Assembly: GCA_041664925.1 (NCBI GenBank)
Contig: JBAYJV010000002.1
Location: forward strand, 200,302-264,301
DNA from: Minisyncoccota bacterium
GTDB lineage: Bacteria; Patescibacteriota; Minisyncoccia; JBAYJV01
Direction of reading: 5' to 3'
DNA length: 64,000 nucleotides
The position numbers and the translations under genes were made by a program. Under the pieces are notes generated by a model. The model had not been told where the DNA came from, made no database searches, and saw only the letters and a list, made by a program, of their open reading frames with translations. This document shows, in pieces, positions 6,856 to 59,032 of the stretch (its first letter is position 1; each line of letters starts with the position of its first letter).

Positions 6856-7843
6856 ATTAGTACAAGTATCGGATTTATTTAATGTCATTTATGGCGTTAA
6901 TTTAGAGTTGGTAAATTTAACTCAATGTAAAAATACAGATAAAAATGCTGTACCTTTTGTTTCTCGTACAGAAAATAATAATGGTGTTTCTGCCTACGTT
7001 GAAATAGAATTAGACGTCGAACTAAATCCAGCACATACACTATCCGTTGCAGGTGGAGGATCTGTTTTGTCAACTTTTTATCAAGCATTTCCTTATTACA
7101 GTGGTCGTGATTTATATGTACTTATCCCCAAAGGAAAAATGAGCGTTATAGAAATGCTTTTTTATGCAAAATGTATCAGCGCAAACAAATATAAATATAA
7201 CTATGGAAGACAAGCAAATAAAACACTAAAAAATATCTTAATTCCATCTCAAATCCCTGAAGAATTAAAAAACAAACTCACCGCTTATTATAAAGAATTA
7301 GAAAAAAGCATTTCTCAAAAACCTTTAGTAGATAAAAAAATCAAACTTGAAATTGATAAATGGGAAAGTTTTATTATTGGAAAATTATTTAAAGTTACAT
7401 TAGGTTCTCATATTCATAGTCTTGAAATTGAAGAAATAGTTGCAGAAAAAAGTAATAAAAATATATCTTATGTTACTAGAACAGCAACAAACAACGGAGT
7501 TGAATTGTTTGTAGAAAATAATGTTTCGATAGAAGAAAAAATCAATTTAGCAAATTGTATTACAGTTGGCGCAGAAGGTTTTAAAGCTTTTTTTCAGCCT
7601 TTAAATTTTATCAACGGAAATAAGATAAGCATAATTAGACATTACAAATTGAATAAATATGTAGCTCTATTTATCAGCACTTTACTAAATTTAGAAATAG
7701 AAAAAAAATTCAATTATGGCAGAGGCGCAACAAAAGAAAGAATAAGCCAATTAAAAATAAAATTACCAGTAAAAAATGGAAATCCTGATTTTGAGTATAT
7801 GGAAAACTATATTAAGTCCTTGTCTTATTCTTCAAGTTTATAA
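6842..7843 (+). CDS. Restriction-modification specificity subunit (BcgIB/HsdS-like, two TRDs)
   Basis: Two repeated target-recognition halves, each ending in a YGRQANK / YGRGATKERISQL-type conserved region. Translationally coupled to the upstream RM gene. Confidence 0.65.
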   Translation: MAMNKLVQVSDLFNVIYGVNLELVNLTQCKNTDKNAVPFVSRTENNNGVSAYVEIELDVELNPAHTLSVAGGGSVLSTFYQAFPYYSGRDLYVLIPKGKMSVIEMLFYAKCISANKYKYNYGRQANKTLKNILIPSQIPEELKNKLTAYYKELEKSISQKPLVDKKIKLEIDKWESFIIGKLFKVTLGSHIHSLEIEEIVAEKSNKNISYVTRTATNNGVELFVENNVSIEEKINLANCITVGAEGFKAFFQPLNFINGNKISIIRHYKLNKYVALFISTLLNLEIEKKFNYGRGATKERISQLKIKLPVKNGNPDFEYMENYIKSLSYSSSL

Positions 7844-7875
7844 TTTAAAATCTAAAATTTAAAGTAAAAATTTTC

Positions 7876-8940
7876 ATGAAAATTTTTTCCGGCATTCAAC
7901 CAACTGGCAAACTTCATATCGGCAATTATTTTGGCGCAATTCAAAACATGGTTAAACTTCAGGAGGAGAATGAGGCAATTTTTTCTATTGTTGATTTGCA
8001 CGCCATCACGGTTGATTATGATCCCAAAGATTTTCAATCTCGCATCAACGATACGATTTTAGATTTTTTGGCTTGCGGTATTGATCCTCAAAAATCAATT
8101 ATATTTATCCAATCGCAAATAAAAGAGCACTCTGAACTTGCTTGGCTTTTAGATACTGTTGCTTCCGTTGGCGAACTCCAGCGCATGACTCAGTTTAAAG
8201 ATAAATCTCAGAAAGAAGCCATCTCTAATATGAAAACATTCAGTAAAGAAGAATCAGAAAAAATTATCAAGCATCTTCCTGATGTGCATCCAATAGTTAA
8301 AACCAGCCTTCGAGAAGCTATCATTAGCGCAGGATTATTTAATTATCCCGTTCTTATGGCTGCAGACATTCTCTTATACGACACAGAAGCTGTTCCAGTT
8401 GGAGACGACCAAAAACAGCACTTGGAATTAACTCAAAACATCATTCGCCGTTTCAATAATAAATTCGGCGAGACATTCAAAAACATCAAACCGCTCATTC
8501 CACAAGAAGGCGCTCGAATCATGAGTCTCAAAGATCCATCTAAAAAAATGAGTAAGTCCGAACCCGATGGTTGTCTTTTTATTACCGACGCTCCCGAAGA
8601 AATTGAAAGAAAAATTAAATCGGCTGTTACTGACACCGAAAGAACTGTTAGTTTTGATCCGGAAAAAAGACCGGCGCTTGCCAATCTTTTAATGATTTAT
8701 GCTTTGTCTGAAAATAAACCAATTAAAAATATTGACTTAAATCAATTTGATGGCCACGCATCGTTCAAAAAAGCGCTTACCGAAAGTCTTATAAAAACAT
8801 TTGAACCGATTAGGAGGAAGCGAGAAGAATTAGAAAAACAACCAGAATACATAAAAGAAATTTTAGAAGAGGGGAGAGTAAAGGCGCAAGCCATTGCCAG
8901 TAAAAAAATCGAACAAGTTAAAGGGGTAATGGGATTATAA
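7876..8940 (+). CDS. trpS: Tryptophan--tRNA ligase
   Basis: Class I aaRS motifs: HIGN (PTGKLHIGNYFG) and KMSKS. Confidence 0.9.
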   Translation: MKIFSGIQPTGKLHIGNYFGAIQNMVKLQEENEAIFSIVDLHAITVDYDPKDFQSRINDTILDFLACGIDPQKSIIFIQSQIKEHSELAWLLDTVASVGELQRMTQFKDKSQKEAISNMKTFSKEESEKIIKHLPDVHPIVKTSLREAIISAGLFNYPVLMAADILLYDTEAVPVGDDQKQHLELTQNIIRRFNNKFGETFKNIKPLIPQEGARIMSLKDPSKKMSKSEPDGCLFITDAPEEIERKIKSAVTDTERTVSFDPEKRPALANLLMIYALSENKPIKNIDLNQFDGHASFKKALTESLIKTFEPIRRKREELEKQPEYIKEILEEGRVKAQAIASKKIEQVKGVMGL

Positions 8941-11383: not shown

Positions 11384-11824
11384 CTACACTCCTCCCTTCT
11401 TGTCCTCGCCTTCTTCGGCGGAACACGGCACCTTGTATCGCACCATCTTCCGGATTCCTACAAATAGAAGGATGGCGACAATCACGAACACTAGCCACCA
11501 GAATCCCTGCCAAAGCCATGGAAAGAACCATGACAGGCTTCCAGGGTCGCCAGCTCCCTGCGCCCTTACCATTGACCCAGAAAGCGCAGGAAGAATGACA
11601 AACACGACCAGTGCTTCAAGCGCCGAGAGAGCTGCCACCGTGAACCACTTTTCGTCTCTCGACATCGGCTTCTTCTTGAAGATCTTTCCAATTCTCTCGT
11701 CAATAACCTCTTTGCTACCCTTGAGAATGTCGACTTTTTCGGTCTTCCTCGGTAGTCTTCTGCCCCGCAGAAGATAGCCGATAAAAAGTCCGACTCCAAA
11801 AACGAGAAGAATTACCCAGATCAT
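11384..11824 (-). CDS. Hypothetical membrane protein (high-GC, likely horizontally acquired)
   Basis: 146 aa with three predicted TM segments. About 50% GC against a window background of about 35%. Hairpin terminator at 11375-11396. Confidence 0.45.
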   Translation of the reverse strand: MIWVILLVFGVGLFIGYLLRGRRLPRKTEKVDILKGSKEVIDERIGKIFKKKPMSRDEKWFTVAALSALEALVVFVILPALSGSMVRAQGAGDPGSLSWFFPWLWQGFWWLVFVIVAILLFVGIRKMVRYKVPCSAEEGEDKKGGV

Positions 11825-11942
11825 TCCGCCTCCTTCCTTTGAGTGTTTGAATGTGAGAAACCTAACTTCCTCTTCACTATCTATTATACCACAAACTTAT
11901 TAAAAAATCAATACTTTATACCTTGGCACAAGTTATTTTGTA

Positions 11943-11976
11943 TAAAAAAAGAAGGTTCGCTTGCTGGCGAACCTTC
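11943..11976 (-). terminator. Intrinsic terminator (minus strand)
   Basis: 10-bp perfect stem GAAGGTTCGC/GCGAACCTTC, 6-nt loop, T7 run on the minus strand. Confidence 0.6.
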
Positions 11977-11994
11977 ATCTCATACGTTCCTGGG

Positions 11995-12240
11995 TCAAGT
12001 AGATATTGTCACTTCGACCAGCTCCACCGCTCCCTCAGGAAGGAGATCTTCGAGTCGCTTGACTTGAGCGCACTCGTAGGGCGTTCCTTCGCAGGGATCT
12101 TCGGAACTGAATCTCGCTCGACCTTCGCTTCTTTCGACAGGTTTCGGGCACCCCTGTCTGTGAGCACTCAGATGAGAGAAAGAAACTCCTCGATGCTTGC
12201 TTCGCGACACGTCTTTTCCTCCTTTGCGTTTTGGGTCCAT
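11995..12240 (-). CDS. Hypothetical basic small protein (high-GC); could alternatively be part of a non-coding transcript
   Basis: 81-aa ORF inside a minus-strand unit of about 400 nt, bounded by promoter rc(TTGACT-N16-TACAAT) at 12350-12377 and terminator 11943-11976. No SD. Confidence 0.3.
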   Translation of the reverse strand: MDPKRKGGKDVSRSKHRGVSFSHLSAHRQGCPKPVERSEGRARFSSEDPCEGTPYECAQVKRLEDLLPEGAVELVEVTIST

Positions 12241-12349
12241 GATTGGACCGCTAATGCTGGAGAGGAAAGGAGGTTTTTAAAGTACAATTTTAACTTTGTC
12301 CTCTCCAACATTAGAGATCTAATATTTGTTTAGAAAGTGCTTTTCACAT

Positions 12350-12377
12350 TACAATTCCATTGTAGCATATATTATAT
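12350..12377 (-). promoter_or_regulatory. Minus-strand promoter of the high-GC transcript
   Basis: rc TTGACT-N16-TACAAT. Confidence 0.45.
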
Positions 12378-12413
12378 CAAAAGTCAAGAAAAACAGTAGT
12401 TATTTGAAAAATA
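12376..12413 (-). terminator. Intrinsic terminator after ftsQ-like gene (bidirectional hairpin)
   Basis: AACAGTAGTTAT-TTGAAAA-ATAACTACTGTT flanked by T-runs on both strands. Confidence 0.55.
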
Positions 12414-20877: not shown

Positions 20878-21178
20878 TGGAGGCTGGAGGAAGGACTTAA
20901 GACGTTGAGTCAGCGGTCTTCCTCCCTGCCTTTTCAAGAAAGATGTTCTCTTGTGAGAGTACACAGCGGTTTGTTGGACTGCTAGTGTGGCTACGGGTAG
21001 TTTGTGGTATCGGCTGCACGATAATAGGCCTTGCAGTCTGGCAGTACTGCGTAGTTTAGGTGCTCTCTGTCGAGAGAACAGAGAAACTGGCACAGAGCCA
21101 GTTCGCGTGTCCTGCAGGGGGCATACCTCTGCTGATGACTGCAGGGGGGTTGACGTCGAGTCAGCCCCTCTTTTTTTA
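20878..21178 (+). ncRNA. Candidate structured RNA of about 300 nt, unknown family
   Basis: Promoter TTGACA(20844)-N16-TATAGT; about 55% GC with many hairpins; terminator 21144-21177. Overlapping ORFs on both strands look spurious. Confidence 0.4.
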
Positions 21179-21217
21179 ATTTCGTCGCTGAATATAGTGA
21201 AGCGAAACGAAATTAAA

Positions 21218-21264
21218 ACCCGCTGAAGCCCTGCCTGCGGCAGGCAGGTTACGCGTAGGCGGGT
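21218..21264. repeat. REP-like palindromic element, copy b
   Basis: ACCCGCTGAAGCCCTGCCTGCGGCAGGCAGGTTACGCGTAGGCGGGT. Confidence 0.55.
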
Positions 21265-21485
21265 ATTTTTGTTTTTTTTAAACCGTAAAGATTATTCTAA
21301 GTTTTTCCTACAAAACCTTACGAAGTCGGACTTCGTAATCATTGACAAAAATGCAGAACATAGTAGGATTATAGAGTTCTTTGATAAAATAAAAAGTAGT
21401 CCCGCACCAGAGCACAGCACGGTGCGGGATTTAAGGGTTTGCAAGACTCGTAAACTCGTCAACAACCCCTAAAGGAGGACATAAA

Positions 21486-42594: not shown

Positions 42595-42630
42595 TTGTTT
42601 TATAAAAAAACTAACAAAGGAGGGGCAACC

Positions 42631-43401
42631 ATGCAATCTGTTGATGAGCAAAAACCAAAAAAGTCCTTTAACATTCTATATGCTTTGCCTGATTTCTTTA
42701 CAGTTCTTCGTATTCCTATTGGCATTGCCATAGCGTTTGTTGGAATATTTTTCGGAAGAAACGGCGTCACAATCGCTTATTGGCTTTTACTCGGCGGTTG
42801 GACAACTGACATTCTTGATGGCAATATTGCGCGCAAAATTGGTAAGAAAAAAACCTGGATAGGTGAACATGATATTCTTTTTGACAGTATCATGCTCCTT
42901 GGTGTGATTTTCTATCTTGGATATGTTGGTTTTATGTCTGTTTTATTAACCGTTGTCTCATTCGTGTTGCTGCTCTTTGTTAACGTTTACCCAAATACTC
43001 GTCATCAAACAAAGTTTTTCGTAGAGTCGCTAATTACCTGTACAACCTTGCCATTTCTTTTTTATCTTTCGCTAAATCCTTTGATAATTGCCGTCACAAT
43101 AGCGTGGGCAACGCTCAACCTCCTTTACGACATAGATCGGGCTATGGTCTTGGGAAAAAAGTGGCAAGACATTTTGGTTAATGTTGGCAAAACACTTAAG
43201 TCCTATTCTTTAAAAACCAATCTCACTTGGTCAATATTGGTTATTGGCATAGGAATCGGAACTGCAATACTCTTATTCAATAACAAAATTCCCTTTTTGT
43301 TCGGAGGAATTATTAAGGGCCTTGCTGTAGTTATGATTTTAATAGCTCTATGGGCTCTGTGGCTTGGCAGAAGAAATCTTCCTAAAAAACCAGAAGAGTA
43401 G
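42631..43401 (+). CDS. CDP-alcohol phosphatidyltransferase family membrane protein
   Basis: Motif DILDGNIARKIGKKKTWIGEHDILFD (D-G-x2-A-R...G-x3-D-x3-D). SD AAAGGAGGGG before ATG at 42631; the ORF track starts upstream at 42595. Confidence 0.65.
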   Translation: MQSVDEQKPKKSFNILYALPDFFTVLRIPIGIAIAFVGIFFGRNGVTIAYWLLLGGWTTDILDGNIARKIGKKKTWIGEHDILFDSIMLLGVIFYLGYVGFMSVLLTVVSFVLLLFVNVYPNTRHQTKFFVESLITCTTLPFLFYLSLNPLIIAVTIAWATLNLLYDIDRAMVLGKKWQDILVNVGKTLKSYSLKTNLTWSILVIGIGIGTAILLFNNKIPFLFGGIIKGLAVVMILIALWALWLGRRNLPKKPEE

Positions 43402-43524
43402 TTTCGCAACTACTCTTCATTTTTAAACAAACATTGAATGATTTTTAGATTCATAGCTTGACATTTATTTTGTAATGATATATGATGTGTTTAGTTCTTG
43501 TTACTACTAAAAGAGGAGGAAGAA

Positions 43525-43908
43525 ATGACCACTAGGTCAAGATCAATGGAAGTTTATCCGAGTGTTCAAAGAATATATCAAGAACACCTTCCGGACAATG
43601 TGACCGCTGTCCAAACAGCCGTAGCTCGAGTACGAAAAGAATTTGAGGGTGGTCAAAAACTCAAGCGTCTTGAAGTCATAATTGGTTTAAGTTTGAGTGA
43701 TTTAGACAGGATCTGGGGTCGATCATATCGTCTCTATATGGATCCTACTGGCGCAGGACAACACCGCTTATATGGATGCCATAGTAATACGATTATGACG
43801 ATTCATTTCATTAACGAAGATAAATTGCAAGTGTTAAAAGAATACAGAAGAAGCATTAAAGAGGAGAGAGAGAATAGAAAAAGACAGGAAGCTGATAATA
43901 GGCTTTGA
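43525..43908 (+). CDS. Hypothetical protein (first gene of accessory island)
   Basis: SD AGAGGAGGAAG; promoter TTGACA-N17-TATGAT at 43458-43486; terminator 43916-43946. Confidence 0.4.
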   Translation: MTTRSRSMEVYPSVQRIYQEHLPDNVTAVQTAVARVRKEFEGGQKLKRLEVIIGLSLSDLDRIWGRSYRLYMDPTGAGQHRLYGCHSNTIMTIHFINEDKLQVLKEYRRSIKEERENRKRQEADNRL

Positions 43909-43973
43909 TTACCCAGCGCCGCCCAAGAAAAAGGGCGGCTTTTTTCTTGACATTAAGCATAAATTAGAGATAA

Positions 43974-44008
43974 CATGGAAATAGAGCAGAGTTTTAAAAA
44001 TTTCCATG
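43974..44008 (+). promoter_or_regulatory. Candidate operator: 9-bp perfect inverted repeat overlapping the GIY-YIG start codon
   Basis: CATGGAAAT-N17-ATTTCCATG; the right arm contains the ATG at 44006. Promoter TTGACA at 43947. Confidence 0.45.
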
Positions 44009-44395
44009 AAAACAAATCCTTCGGTCTTTCTCACTTGGCAGGGTTATTACGATTACGACATAGAAAATGTTGAAAAGTATGTTTTAAAGGAACCTCGTCT
44101 TCCTGGCGTTTATAAAATTGCCGAACTTCAAGAGTTTAGCAGTTTAACGCCATTTTTTATCGGAAAAACCGACGATCTCTATAAAACATTAATGCGCCAT
44201 CTTGGTGATCTTGAAACCAACACTTGCCTTAAAAAGGAGATGAAAGATAAAATTTGTTGTTTTAAGTTTTCTGCCTTAATGAATGAAAAAGAGCAAAACG
44301 ATGTTTTGTTCACAATGTTTGAACATTATCATCCTATCTGTAATAACAAAGACGATATTCCTCCGGCTGACCTAGTTGAAATCAATTTTCAATAA
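44006..44395 (+). CDS. GIY-YIG nuclease-family small protein
   Basis: GVYKI...(12 aa)...FIGKT then R (MRHL) and E (GDLE), the GIY-YIG core. Stop overlaps the next start (TAATGA). Confidence 0.5.
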   Translation: MKTNPSVFLTWQGYYDYDIENVEKYVLKEPRLPGVYKIAELQEFSSLTPFFIGKTDDLYKTLMRHLGDLETNTCLKKEMKDKICCFKFSALMNEKEQNDVLFTMFEHYHPICNNKDDIPPADLVEINFQ

Positions 44396-44634
44396 TGAGA
44401 AAAATAACTCCAAGAGAATATGCTGTTTTCAGCTTCATTAAACAATTTTTAGACGACTACGAAAAAAGTCCCACCAGGCGGGAAATCGGAGAAGCTTTTT
44501 CTATAACAACTCAAGGCGCAGATTATTTTGTTCACCGGCTTATACAGAGAGGTGTTGTTTCACTCAGATCAGATAGTGTTCGAAATATCCGTCCAACTGA
44601 AAAATCATTGGGACGCCAACCTCATCTCTGGTAA
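44395..44634 (+). CDS. LexA-like winged-helix DNA-binding protein (DBD only, no peptidase domain)
   Basis: ITPREYAVFSFIKQFLDDYEKSPTRREIGEAFSI...HRLIQRGVV matches the LexA N-terminal DNA-binding domain. Confidence 0.55.
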   Translation: MRKITPREYAVFSFIKQFLDDYEKSPTRREIGEAFSITTQGADYFVHRLIQRGVVSLRSDSVRNIRPTEKSLGRQPHLW

Positions 44635-44763
44635 TTAATAAATAAGGATTAATATATTCTGATAATAAACGGTATTGTCAGTTTTTTGTTCTCTAAAATT
44701 TGACAAATAATAGTCCATGTGATAAGCTCAAGAAAGTTCTCATAAAAAATACAAGGAGGTAAA

Positions 44764-45423
44764 ATGCCTGAACCAGCTGGTCAGAAAGAAAAAGTCCTAG
44801 TGTTTATCGATGCTGCTAACTTAAGCGCGGCCCAGAACAAAATAGGATTATCAATTAACTTTAGGGCTTTCTCAGATGTTTTGAGAGGTGACGGAGAGTT
44901 TATCGAGAAAGGGTTACGTTTTTACGAGCAAGATGCAATCGGTAAGCAAGGTTTTTTTTCAGCACTCAGAGTGCACGGCTATACTATTATCCCAACGAAA
45001 GAAAGTAATGTTGATGATGCAATTCTAAGAGATATACATTCAATGGCTGCCTTGGCTGACAGAATTGTTCTGGTCAGCGGCGATGAAGATTTTACTGACG
45101 CACTGCTCATGGCTGGAGTTGGAAAAAAAATTCAAGTTTTTTCCATTTCAACGATGGTAGCAGCAAGATTTAGAAACAAACCGTTTGAGTATATCGATCT
45201 CGCTGATTTAGTTGATCAGATTATTGATAAAACAAAGACTAATGAAAGATCTCGAAGAATATATCTCGATCCTTCAGGTCAAACCCTTGAAATTGTTCTT
45301 GGAGATAACAGCACAATCACAATCACTCCAAATCAGAGAAGTGCCAGCGTCCGGATTACTGGGAGCATTCTTTACAAACGCATGCCAGACTGCTTATATA
45401 TCACGGTTAAAGATATAAATTAA
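44764..45423 (+). CDS. NYN-domain (LabA-like, PIN-fold) ribonuclease-family protein
   Basis: VLVFIDAANL ... IVLVSGDEDF NYN signature; SD AAGGAGG; terminator 45463-45495. Confidence 0.7.
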   Translation: MPEPAGQKEKVLVFIDAANLSAAQNKIGLSINFRAFSDVLRGDGEFIEKGLRFYEQDAIGKQGFFSALRVHGYTIIPTKESNVDDAILRDIHSMAALADRIVLVSGDEDFTDALLMAGVGKKIQVFSISTMVAARFRNKPFEYIDLADLVDQIIDKTKTNERSRRIYLDPSGQTLEIVLGDNSTITITPNQRSASVRITGSILYKRMPDCLYITVKDIN

Positions 45424-45535
45424 TTTAGAAATAGTTCAGCTTAAAACTGCCAGTTTAAGATAGTGTCCGCCCAAGAAAAGCGGACACTTTTTTTAATTGT
45501 TTTTGACATTTTGACCCAAAAAGTCAGTAAAACTA

Positions 45536-45601
45536 TTGACTTTTTTACTAAGGTATGCTATACTGATAATAAGTACAAGTGACTGGGGTTGTCCCAGTCA
45601 C
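45536..45601 (+). promoter_or_regulatory. Consensus promoter plus 9-bp perfect inverted repeat in the 5'UTR of the high-GC orphan
   Basis: TTGACT-N17-TATACT (45536-45564), then GTGACTGGG-GTTGT-CCCAGTCAC (45579-45601). Confidence 0.55.
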
Positions 45602-45629
45602 AATAAAACCAAATAGGAGGAAAGAAACG

Positions 45630-46514
45630 ATGTGTCCGATTAATGCCGATGGAATCAAGGTCGTTGCTCCTGCTTCTCCCGTAAGGGACCCGCGAACGAA
45701 CAAGGCAGTTGCAGTTGAGGTCGTCACGAAGGGTGAGTTTGAACGCTTCAATATGCCCAACTATTTCAGGGTGGGAGAAAGCGGCTCGATCACCTTCGGG
45801 TTCGGTCACTTCAACCAGGAAGGAATCGGCCGTGATCATCAGTTCAAGATCGTGGTCGAGAAGCCTCGGGAGACCGTCGACAAACTCAATCAGATGGTAA
45901 GCGACTGGTTCCGCCTCCGAAGCCTGGCGAGAACTTCGTCAGGTGACGAGAGAGAGGAAGCACGAACAGCGTTCAATGAGCTCAAGTCACGATTCCTAGG
46001 AATCATCGGGCAGCCAGCAATGGCGAAGCTCGCAACGCCCAATCTCCTGATTCTCAGTCCTCTCGAATCAGGAACAGAGGTCTTCGCGTCGATTGTGGTC
46101 TACACGACTTTCGAAAGCGATGACAAGATCGTGGATCCGATGGACGAGGGCGTACTTCTTCATGGGAGGTTCGGAGAGAATGGTCATGTGATCGCAGTTC
46201 TGATCACAACCGACCGCACCATCCCCTTCACAACTCCCAATGGATACACGTGGAAGGTTCCTGTGGATGTCCCCAACGGAGTTCCCACGGTGGAAGCGAC
46301 CTTCCCGCCGGATGCCGGTCACGAAGCGCCCGCTACCAGCGATGGCAGCGAGAGCGCCAGCGACCACGCACGAGAGGAGGTTCCTTTCCTCGAAGAGAAA
46401 GACCGTCATCATCGTAGTGGCAGAAAGCTCGCTGCGGTCGGCGCCACTGGAAGAGGCAAGGGAACCAAGAGGGGGTTGCATCCTGCCGATGTAGGAGCAG
46501 AAGACGACGGATAG
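45630..46514 (+). CDS. High-GC orphan protein, likely horizontally acquired
   Basis: SD AGGAGG before ATG at 45630; about 55% GC; own promoter 45536-45564 and terminator 46523-46560; disordered charged C-terminal tail. Confidence 0.55.
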   Translation: MCPINADGIKVVAPASPVRDPRTNKAVAVEVVTKGEFERFNMPNYFRVGESGSITFGFGHFNQEGIGRDHQFKIVVEKPRETVDKLNQMVSDWFRLRSLARTSSGDEREEARTAFNELKSRFLGIIGQPAMAKLATPNLLILSPLESGTEVFASIVVYTTFESDDKIVDPMDEGVLLHGRFGENGHVIAVLITTDRTIPFTTPNGYTWKVPVDVPNGVPTVEATFPPDAGHEAPATSDGSESASDHAREEVPFLEEKDRHHRSGRKLAAVGATGRGKGTKRGLHPADVGAEDDG

Positions 46515-46522
46515 TCGTCTCT

Positions 46523-46560
46523 CGAGCCCAGCTGAAAGAGTAGCTGGGCTCATTTTTTTT
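46523..46560 (+). terminator. Intrinsic terminator after the high-GC orphan
   Basis: GAGCCCAGCT-GAAAGAGT-AGCTGGGCTC + T8. Confidence 0.7.
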
Positions 46561-46596
46561 ATCCTCCTCTTTTAAAAAAGAAAAATATGCTTTAAA

Positions 46597-58451: not shown

Positions 58452-58541
58452 TGCAAATTAAAAATTTAAAGTGAAAAATGAAAAATGATTGAAGCTGCAA
58501 GAGCAGCTCTTTTTAATTGACAAAGATAGCTCTATGCTGTA

Positions 58542-59032
58542 AAATGTTAGAGCTTAGAAATGAATGGTCTTCTCCGGCTTTGCTGGTGAGGAAAGTCCGA
58601 ACACCGCCAATTTTGTCTTTGAGTGATAGCGAAAAGAAACAAAATTGAGCGTCTCGCCATAGTTCCGGTTCACCGGAACGTAGGCGGACACCCGCCTTTG
58701 TCTTACAGACTTCGGCGAGGTCTCGATTCTGTATCTTCGCTGCGCTTCAGACAGAATTGGAAATGGACAGTGGCTAACGGCCACCGCCCCGGCTTGCCGG
58801 GGTAGGGAAAGTACCACAGAAACAATACATCCGCCCTCGGGTGGATAGGTGAAAAGTGAGGTTTAATAAATCTCTCGACACATAAGTGATTATGCGTTGC
58901 GGCAAACCCTGTCCGGTGCAACCCCGGTATAACCGGGGGCTTGATTCATAGTAATGTGAATCAGAGGCTCTGTCGCAAGACAGGCTCTAGATAAATGACC
59001 AATAAACAGAATTCGGCTTATCATTTTTGAGC
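58542..59032 (+). ncRNA. rnpB: RNase P RNA (bacterial, with lineage-specific insertions)
   Basis: P4 strands GAGGAAAGTCCG (58587-58598) and ACAGAATTCGGCTTA (59006-59020). P1 pairing GCTTAGAAATGA / TCATTTTTGAGC. Promoter TTGACA-N17-TAAAAT at 58507-58535. Confidence 0.8.

Follow-up and report, generated by a model that had tools for sequence, protein, structure and literature searches.

We found that five neighbouring genes in the genome of an uncultured bacterium form two evolutionary layers, not one island. The genes, referred to here as g1 to g5, lie at positions 43458-46560 of a 64,000-nucleotide stretch (the window) of contig JBAYJV010000002.1, positions 200,302 to 264,301 of the forward strand. 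The contig comes from a metagenome-assembled genome of Candidatus Paceibacterota, a group belonging to the Candidate Phyla Radiation (CPR). The older layer is clade-wide. It consists of a translationally coupled and presumably weakly translated pair, g2 and g3, which encode a GIY-YIG-like protein and a LexA-type DNA-binding domain, followed by a separately transcribed GC-rich orphan, g5. The younger layer, present only in the window's genus, consists of two self-contained cassettes, the orphan g1 and the NYN-domain RNase gene g4, which were inserted so as to flank the pair.

A trio of genes fixed at one chromosomal site

About 40 loci in nine lineages were collected, starting from near-identical and distant g2 and g3 proteins and from metagenome scans with a flanking gene. 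Every locus that was long enough contains g2, an overlapping g3 and then an orphan of 155–294 residues without a Pfam match, directly upstream of an LPG_synthase_TM orthologue. Nine of nine sampled lineages have the order g2-g3-g5, and the chromosomal site is the same in each; the identical five-gene arrangement was assembled from several separate samples. Among the samples with the locus are SRR6484324, SRR18595301, ERZ27249449 and JGI 3300029268. The identity of the orphan to g5 falls from 50% through 33% and about 25% to marginal in the deepest lineages, following the divergence of the species. Across the nine lineages, the identity of g2 ranges from 100% to 46%, as does that of the flanking LPG synthase. 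The g2 family comprises 17 clusters among 5.8 billion, all of them at the g2-g3-g5 locus. A preliminary description of this DNA had regarded the block as an accessory island. This view is not borne out: the trio is fixed at one site, its divergence tracks that of the flanks, and hallmarks of mobility were not found.

Selection acts differently on the individual genes. The ratio of nonsynonymous to synonymous substitution rates (dN/dS), estimated from three lineages of the window's genus (dS 0.3–1.2), is 0.05–0.08 for g2 and 0.02–0.04 for g3, in the range of the flanking enzymes (0.04–0.18). It is about 0.2 for g1 and g4, and about 0.38 for g5, whose amino acid identity within the genus is 45–50%. 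The slow evolution of g2 and g3 is the reverse of the usual pattern of mobile toxin-antitoxin (TA) or defence genes.

The other two genes have a much narrower distribution. Both g1 and g4 were found only in the window's genus (the window, L004/L005 and L009/L010); g1 proteins of the window, L004 and L009 are 63-67% identical, and the gene is absent from deeper lineages. The NYN gene g4 is missing from six of the nine lineages, all of which retain g3; therefore, g3 is not dedicated to g4. Co-occurrence of the GIY-YIG, LexA-type and NYN genes had been proposed as a check of the preliminary description, and only part of that trio passed it. The first two genes do travel together, whereas the NYN gene is confined to one genus and g5 is the constant third member instead.

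The surroundings of the trio are conserved over a longer range and at the same time change locally. Gene order is preserved over some 15 kb in these genomes. The window, L016, L019, L037 and L039 have the CDP-alcohol phosphatidyltransferase gene upstream of the block (42595-43401 in the window), and L004/L005, L009, L017 and L021 lack it, showing that the flank turns over. In the g1 position upstream of g2, L016 carries x222 (7130-7881), a 222-residue orphan with 51% GC and 0.57 GC at third codon positions (GC3). This gene has a full promoter of the g5 class (TTGATT-N12-TATGTTATAAT, discussed below) and its own GC-rich terminator, and no resemblance of its product to g1 or g5 was detected. A 42-residue open reading frame (ORF) is found at the site in L021. 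Scans of genome collections with the flanking gene revealed no relative with an empty site.

These data bear directly on the possibility that the genes have no functional connection, being lineage-specific genes at an insertion-tolerant intergenic site that are kept together by synteny alone. Each transcription unit has a separate promoter and terminator, the insertion of g4 between g3 and g5 left both intact, and the site evidently tolerates gain and loss, as illustrated by the CDP-alcohol phosphatidyltransferase gene, x222, the short ORF of L021 and the loss of g5 in L028. Moreover, the 15 kb around the locus would be syntenic anyway. On the other hand, the trio has stayed adjacent and in the same order in all nine lineages, past the saturation of silent sites, while its neighbours turned over, which is suggestive although not decisive. 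We regard synteny alone as a doubtful explanation, yet one that deserves to be taken seriously.

Organization of the locus

All five genes are encoded on the plus strand, and their proteins are recorded as NCBI MFA6437328–32. Upstream of the block are genes of the NTP_transferase and CDP-OH_P_transf families, and downstream are LPG_synthase_TM and DAGK. The features of the block are as follows.

43393-43418, no strand assigned: bidirectional terminator hairpin (11-bp stem, both strands scored) that closes the CDP-alcohol phosphatidyltransferase gene and marks the left edge of the block
43458-43486, plus: g1 promoter, TTGACA-N17-TATGAT, 11 of 12 matches (promoter scan)
43525-43908, plus: g1, 127-residue orphan with a strong Shine-Dalgarno (SD) sequence (ORF)
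43918-43939, plus: intrinsic terminator of g1 (scan; repeat D2)
43947-43976, plus: g2-g3 promoter, TTGACA-N18-TAACAT, immediately past the g1 terminator (promoter scan)
44006-44395, plus: g2, 129-residue GIY-YIG-like protein (ORF, family alignment, hhalign)
44395-44634, plus: g3, 79-residue LexA-type winged-helix DNA-binding domain (ORF, LexA_DNA_bind)
44659-44687, plus: weak AT-rich hairpin (CTGATAAT/ATTGTCAG) followed by T6, possible g2-g3 terminator (read from the sequence, unscored by the scan)
44700-44728, plus: putative g4 promoter, TTGACA-N17-TAAGCT with TG upstream (read from the sequence, under the scan threshold)
44764-45423, plus: g4, 219-residue NYN-domain RNase (ORF, Pfam NYN)
45463-45494, plus: intrinsic terminator of g4, GTGTCCGC...GCGGACAC followed by T7 (read from the sequence, unscored by the scan; repeats I6 and D2)
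45518-45564, plus: g5 promoter with an A-tract, the -35 element TTGACT, a 17-bp spacer and the extended -10 element TATGCTATACT (promoter scan, comparison)
45579-45601, plus: hairpin in the 5′ untranslated region of g5, 9-bp stem (folding energy, comparison)
45630-46514, plus: g5, 294-residue GC-rich orphan (ORF)
46524-46560, plus: intrinsic terminator of g5 with an 11-bp stem, 7 GC pairs and T8, the right edge of the block (terminator scan)

The three best sigma-70-like sites within 41.5-48.5 kb (10-11 of 12 matches) are located directly 5′ of g1, g2 and g5, and the terminator scan placed strong terminators 3′ of g1 and g5. Promoter-like sites are enriched in this region (37 observed, 17.8 expected), as are terminator-like sites (15 observed, 5.4 expected). 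The g4 promoter is weaker than the other three. The stop codon of g2 overlaps the start codon of g3 by one base (TAATG), so that g3 is translationally coupled to g2. The g2 leader has no SD in any lineage.

Much of the preliminary description of the layout thus proved accurate. The five genes and their flanks are where it had placed them, the overlap of g2 and g3 is seen in the sequence, and each unit does have private promoters and terminators, although the putative g4 promoter is weaker than the others and the hairpin after g3 is weak. Its identification of the g3 and g4 products as a LexA N-terminal domain devoid of an enzymatic domain and an NYN protein, respectively, likewise agrees with the profile matches given below. 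The last gene, put at about 55% GC in a genome of about 35%, measured 55.9% against a window mean of 35.7%. The region as a whole, in contrast, is not atypical in composition: g5 is, but g1-g4 (34-40% GC) are not.

A GIY-YIG-like protein that has lost its catalytic residues

Alone, g2 matches nothing in Pfam. The only Pfam family touched by the g2 family is GIY-YIG (PF01541), weakly and in 3 of 15 members (E >= 0.038), and its sole NCBIfam match is Cho (E 0.011). When the GIY-YIG domain of T. maritima UvrC was used as a query, g2 was the only match within the window, and hhalign aligned g2 with the whole of this domain (86 columns, E 8.7e-5). The GIY (GVYKI) and YIG (PF[FY][VI]G) motifs are conserved across the family, and UvrC residues Y19, Y29 and N88 are retained. 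With the N-terminal GIY-YIG domain of UvrC/Cho (PF01541; PDB 1ycz), g2 further shares an MNE[KR]E segment that follows strand 3 and the P-x-x-N at the end; the YIG motif of g2 itself reads PFYVG. Assignment of g2 to the GIY-YIG fold therefore appears reasonable.

The catalytic site tells a different story. The catalytic Arg of UvrC (R39) aligns with g2 T61 in a gap-free region where the family has T, A, V, I or S, and the metal-binding Glu (E76) aligns, also without gaps, with L101 in a column of L, V or A. Every member of the family has small or hydrophobic residues at these two positions. Since both columns hold other residues, g2 is most likely a pseudo-nuclease, and a role as a nuclease toxin is unlikely. 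Of the earlier label of g2 as a GIY-YIG nuclease, the fold has thus reasonably held and the activity probably has not. In addition, g2 differs from UvrC/Cho in being a stand-alone protein of 129 residues with an invariant N-terminal WQGYYDY motif and three conserved cysteines (Cys74, Cys84 and Cys112).

A LexA domain without its partner

The g3 protein matches LexA_DNA_bind (PF01726) over residues 1-61 (E 1e-8) and has no second domain. The full-length LexA model TIGR00498 is matched only over positions 1-69, with a score of 32.5 against a cutoff of 110.95. Both matches are in line with the similarity to the SOS repressor LexA (TIGR00498; PF01726 plus Peptidase_S24), which includes the winged helix and its RGIRL-like strand, RNIRP in g3. 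In contrast to LexA, g3 ends at residue 79 in all lineages, having no hinge with the Ala-Gly self-cleavage site and no S24 domain with the Ser/Lys protease and dimerisation functions, and it is always paired with g2.

The combination of the two modules is reminiscent of I-TevI-type homing endonucleases, in which a GIY-YIG domain is joined to a C-terminal helix-turn-helix (HTH) DNA-binding domain, and which are encoded by free-standing genes that have promoters of their own; the I-TevI protein in addition acts as an autorepressor. The g2-g3 unit similarly bears its own promoter and stands free between conserved genes. Here, however, each module is a polypeptide of its own, the catalytic residues have disappeared (R27 and E75 of I-TevI are the equivalents of UvrC R39 and E76), and the locus is fixed, vertically inherited and shows no sign of homing or mobility.

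The genus-specific cassettes g1 and g4

The g4 protein contains an NYN domain (PF01936) at residues 10-145 (E 4e-13, 50.5 bits against a Pfam gathering threshold of 24.2) and retains the FIDxxN, NVDD and SGDEDF motifs. Its acidic-site residues D16, N19, D84, D85, D107 and D109 do not vary among three lineages. Bacterial NYN proteins commonly carry an OST-HTH/LOTUS domain. Like LabA/NYN RNases, g4 keeps the conserved acidic residues, but instead of OST-HTH/LOTUS it has an unassigned beta-rich C-terminal extension of 60-70 residues, and at this site it is confined to one genus. It is about 30% identical to generic NYN proteins on plasmids and has no matches in phages or viral contigs. For g1, no match was obtained in Pfam, NCBIfam, PHROGs or PADLOC.

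The terminators of g1 and g4 (43919-43945 and 45467-45493; CCGCCCAAGAAAA...) are 81% identical over 27 nucleotides, and g1 and the g4 C-terminus have in common a short R-x-Y-x-DP-x-G motif. Together these similarities may be a statistically weak trace of a common cassette origin. A domain common to g1, the g4 C-terminus and g5 was considered and rejected: for g1 against g4, hhalign gave E 0.003 over 27 columns with a probability of only 10%, and g5 is unrelated.

Probably not a toxin-antitoxin pair or a defence island

The preliminary description had likened the block to TA or phage-defence modules, and for g2-g3 the resemblance to the former is real. HigBA- and MqsRA-type loci have overlapping small genes with the DNA-binding partner in second place. 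The same layout is seen in g2-g3, where genes of 129 and 79 residues overlap by one base, the enzyme-like gene comes first and the HTH gene second, and the pair has its own promoter. It would be natural to picture a toxin-first type II system (HigBA, MqsRA, HicAB) in which a GIY-YIG nuclease is neutralised by an HTH antitoxin that represses the operon. The pair nevertheless departs from such systems in several ways. The GIY-YIG Arg and Glu are absent family-wide; the family is restricted to a single locus and vertically inherited instead of being patchy, mobile and, as is often the case, multi-copy; and both genes are under purifying selection of housekeeping level. Searches of PADLOC, of phages and viral contigs and of the literature gave nothing comparable. 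We consider a TA pair improbable.

An anti-phage island, with the NYN RNase and the g2 GIY-YIG protein as effectors under a LexA-like repressor, seems very improbable. It could draw on the intact catalytic residues of g4 and its weak PADLOC NYN match (E 5e-6, domain-level only), on the variable presence of g1 and g4 and on their monocistronic cassettes. The only other PADLOC match of the block, likewise at the domain level, is that of g3 to the winged HTH segment of a model for CARF (E 6e-5); no PADLOC-DB v2 system model was matched, g1, g2 and g5 match nothing there, and the block proteins have no PHROG match beyond the generic domain level. The block is surrounded by genes of lipid and central metabolism whose synteny is conserved, the trio of g2, g3 and g5 is fixed throughout the lineages, and the NYN gene is absent from most lineages in which g3 stays. 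The earlier statement that no described system has this composition is borne out among PADLOC system models and in the literature searched, which contained no pairs of GIY-YIG and LexA-type proteins and no reports of GC-rich genes in CPR genomes.

Nor does the block look like a genomic island. Only g5 is atypical in composition and only g1 and g4 vary in presence. No integrase or flanking direct repeats were found at the block, and ARAGORN detected no tRNA in the 64-kb window. Phage or plasmid origin was rejected as well: neither g5 nor g4 has phage matches, neither g2 nor g4 has matches in viral contigs, and the identity of g4 to plasmid proteins is only about 30%.

A persistently GC-rich orphan

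The composition of g5 is exceptional. Its GC content is 55.9% and its GC3 is 0.61, in a window with a mean of 35.7% (standard deviation 5.4%, 300-nucleotide windows); g1-g4, with GC3 of 0.28-0.33, are genome-like. The excess is present in every lineage, where g5 has 39–57% GC against a background of 31–40%. In five lineages, GC3 is 0.44-0.69 for g5 and 0.25-0.36 for housekeeping genes. Between deep lineages, 4-fold degenerate sites of housekeeping genes are approximately saturated, 0.32-0.41 of them being identical against 0.29-0.31 expected. Because the GC excess has been kept across silent-site saturation, it must have been maintained and is not a remnant of recent horizontal transfer.

Acquisition from a donor of about 55-58% GC, with a composition that has yet to drift back, would have been the conventional explanation. 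The GC content at the three codon positions (0.62/0.45/0.61) resembles that of an ordinary gene in a genome of moderately high GC, and g5 is an orphan without relatives elsewhere. Yet the excess is seen in all nine lineages, GC3 remains high where the silent sites of housekeeping genes are saturated, the divergence of g5 matches the species pattern, and no donor homologue was found among 1.84 billion representatives. We therefore judge such a transfer to be improbable; a transfer in the distant past would still be compatible with these data if the composition had been actively maintained since.

Neither sequence nor fold relatives of g5 were detected outside the clade. It has no match in Pfam, NCBIfam, PHROGs or PADLOC and no phage matches, and its family comprises seven representatives among the 1.84 billion. 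The folded core (residues 24-222) consists of two beta domains flanking a helical hairpin, whereas the tail (223-294) is disordered and charged, carries an EEVPF motif and ends in a stretch rich in GRGKG. A conserved acidic-hydrophobic motif after a disordered linker is present both at residues 249-253 of g5 (46374-46388) and at the C-termini of P0034, P0036 and P0037. Its variants are EEVPF, EEIPF and EEDVEF[VI], and in the window's genus the basic GRGKG-rich tail lies behind it. The motif is loosely reminiscent of the C-terminal tip of SSB, DDDIPF. A PDB match of g5 to a fucose-binding lectin (E 3e-5) was discarded, since it sums three repeats of an engineered chain and a single copy gives E of about 1.

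The g5 promoter is near-maximal. Its architecture (A-tract, TTGAC[AT], 17-bp spacing, TRTG-n-TAnnnT) is conserved in 9 of 9 lineages, and the full motif has one other exact match in the window, at 12359–12387 on the minus strand, before the other most GC-rich unit. About 8 nucleotides past the predicted transcription start there is a 5′ hairpin, at the same position in every lineage although formed by different sequences. In the window its folding energy is -17.4 kcal/mol (z -3.3 to -5.1). The hairpin reaches significance within the window's genus but is modest in other lineages. In each lineage g5 also has a strong SD and is followed by a strong terminator.

Dual coding was dismissed as a cause of the high GC content. 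Shuffling of synonymous codons yields open antisense frames just as long, and in L017, L021 and L039 these frames are closed. The window does have a 161-residue ORF antisense to g5 (46068-46553, minus strand); it is opened just past the g5 terminator by AGAGGAGGAT-N7-ATG (46546-46574, minus strand), which includes a perfect SD-like sequence. The length of this ORF is accounted for by composition, and it is not conserved in other lineages.

Other GC-rich units in the window

The second GC-rich unit (11945-12390, minus strand; about 47-51% GC) is the one preceded by the exact g5-type promoter, TTGACT-N12-TATGCTACAAT. It has a strong terminator at about 11945-11975 and a long hairpin at about 12228-12335, and its sole ORF, of 81 residues, has no SD. 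Rfam matches within the unit are miRNA-like and were set aside as spurious; it could encode either a structured RNA or a small protein. Next to it, 11384-11824 (minus strand) encodes a predicted membrane protein of 146 residues (GC 51%, GC3 0.59) with a strong SD and a terminator. It has its own extended -10 promoter (TTGATT-N17-TGGTATAAT, 11883-11911) and, as a GC-rich cassette delimited by a promoter, resembles g5. GC-rich patches without convincing ORFs (0.49-0.52 in 300-nucleotide windows) occur at 20900-21300, around 25900 and at 58500-58900. They may be divergent structured RNAs; a scan of the whole window at Rfam gathering thresholds returned no matches.

A possible regulator and its possible target

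How might the members of the trio work together? We suggest that g2 and g3 could form a heteromeric DNA-binding regulator, in which the dead GIY-YIG subunit would supply the partner or dimerisation role of the missing LexA C-terminal domain. The regulator would be of low abundance, because g2 has no SD and g3 is translationally coupled to it. By contrast, g5 may be a very abundant clade-specific cytoplasmic protein, its GC-rich coding sequence being held by expression-linked selection, for example on mRNA stability in an AT-rich cell. It would also be the likeliest target for regulation by g2-g3. For g4, a role as an ordinary active NYN RNase, added later, would suffice.

Several observations count against this proposal. 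The GIY-YIG fold assignment of g2 has modest sequence statistics behind it, and the AlphaFold2 model built from 15 sequences has a predicted local distance difference test score (pLDDT) of only 49.7. High expression of g5 is predicted from its promoter, 5′ hairpin, SD and terminator signals alone. Enolase and other housekeeping genes that are usually well expressed are not GC-rich here, and expression alone may not fully explain the GC excess of g5. An inverted repeat over the g5 -35 element, AGTCA-N10-TGACT, was tried as an operator for g3 and rejected, its left arm being part of a generic A-tract/-35 promoter feature of this genome, which has 14 matches in the window against 5.4 expected; no specific operator was found. 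Finally, L028 has lost the g5 coding sequence through a natural deletion (160-480); what is left directly upstream of LPG_synthase_TM is g3, a promoter of the g5 type, a short remnant and the terminator. Therefore, g2-g3 must have a role beyond the control of g5.

Taking these points into account, we hold only tentatively that g2-g3 is a regulator and g5 an abundant, expression-selected protein, possibly the target of the pair; this seems quite possible, if short of probable. The more specific version, in which a dead GIY-YIG/LexA-type regulator governs a hyper-expressed g5 of novel fold that is held about 10-20 GC points above the genome past silent-site saturation, is unlikely to be right in all its parts.

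The significance of these results is in the first place corrective. An apparent nuclease next to a small repressor, with private promoters, mimics a defence or TA module, and yet the pair is fixed, vertically inherited and slowly evolving, and its active site is gone. As far as the literature searched reaches, neither the persistently GC-rich orphan nor a pair made up of a pseudo-GIY-YIG protein and a LexA DNA-binding domain has been described before, and the pair may be an example of a LexA domain that works without a dimerisation domain of its own. In turn, g5 offers a clean natural case of a gene that has stayed GC-rich in an AT-rich reduced genome past silent-site saturation and that has a conserved maximal promoter. 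It thereby bears on the long-running question of selection on silent-site GC content. If the more specific version given above is true, composition itself would be the selected trait, tied to one class of full-strength promoters.

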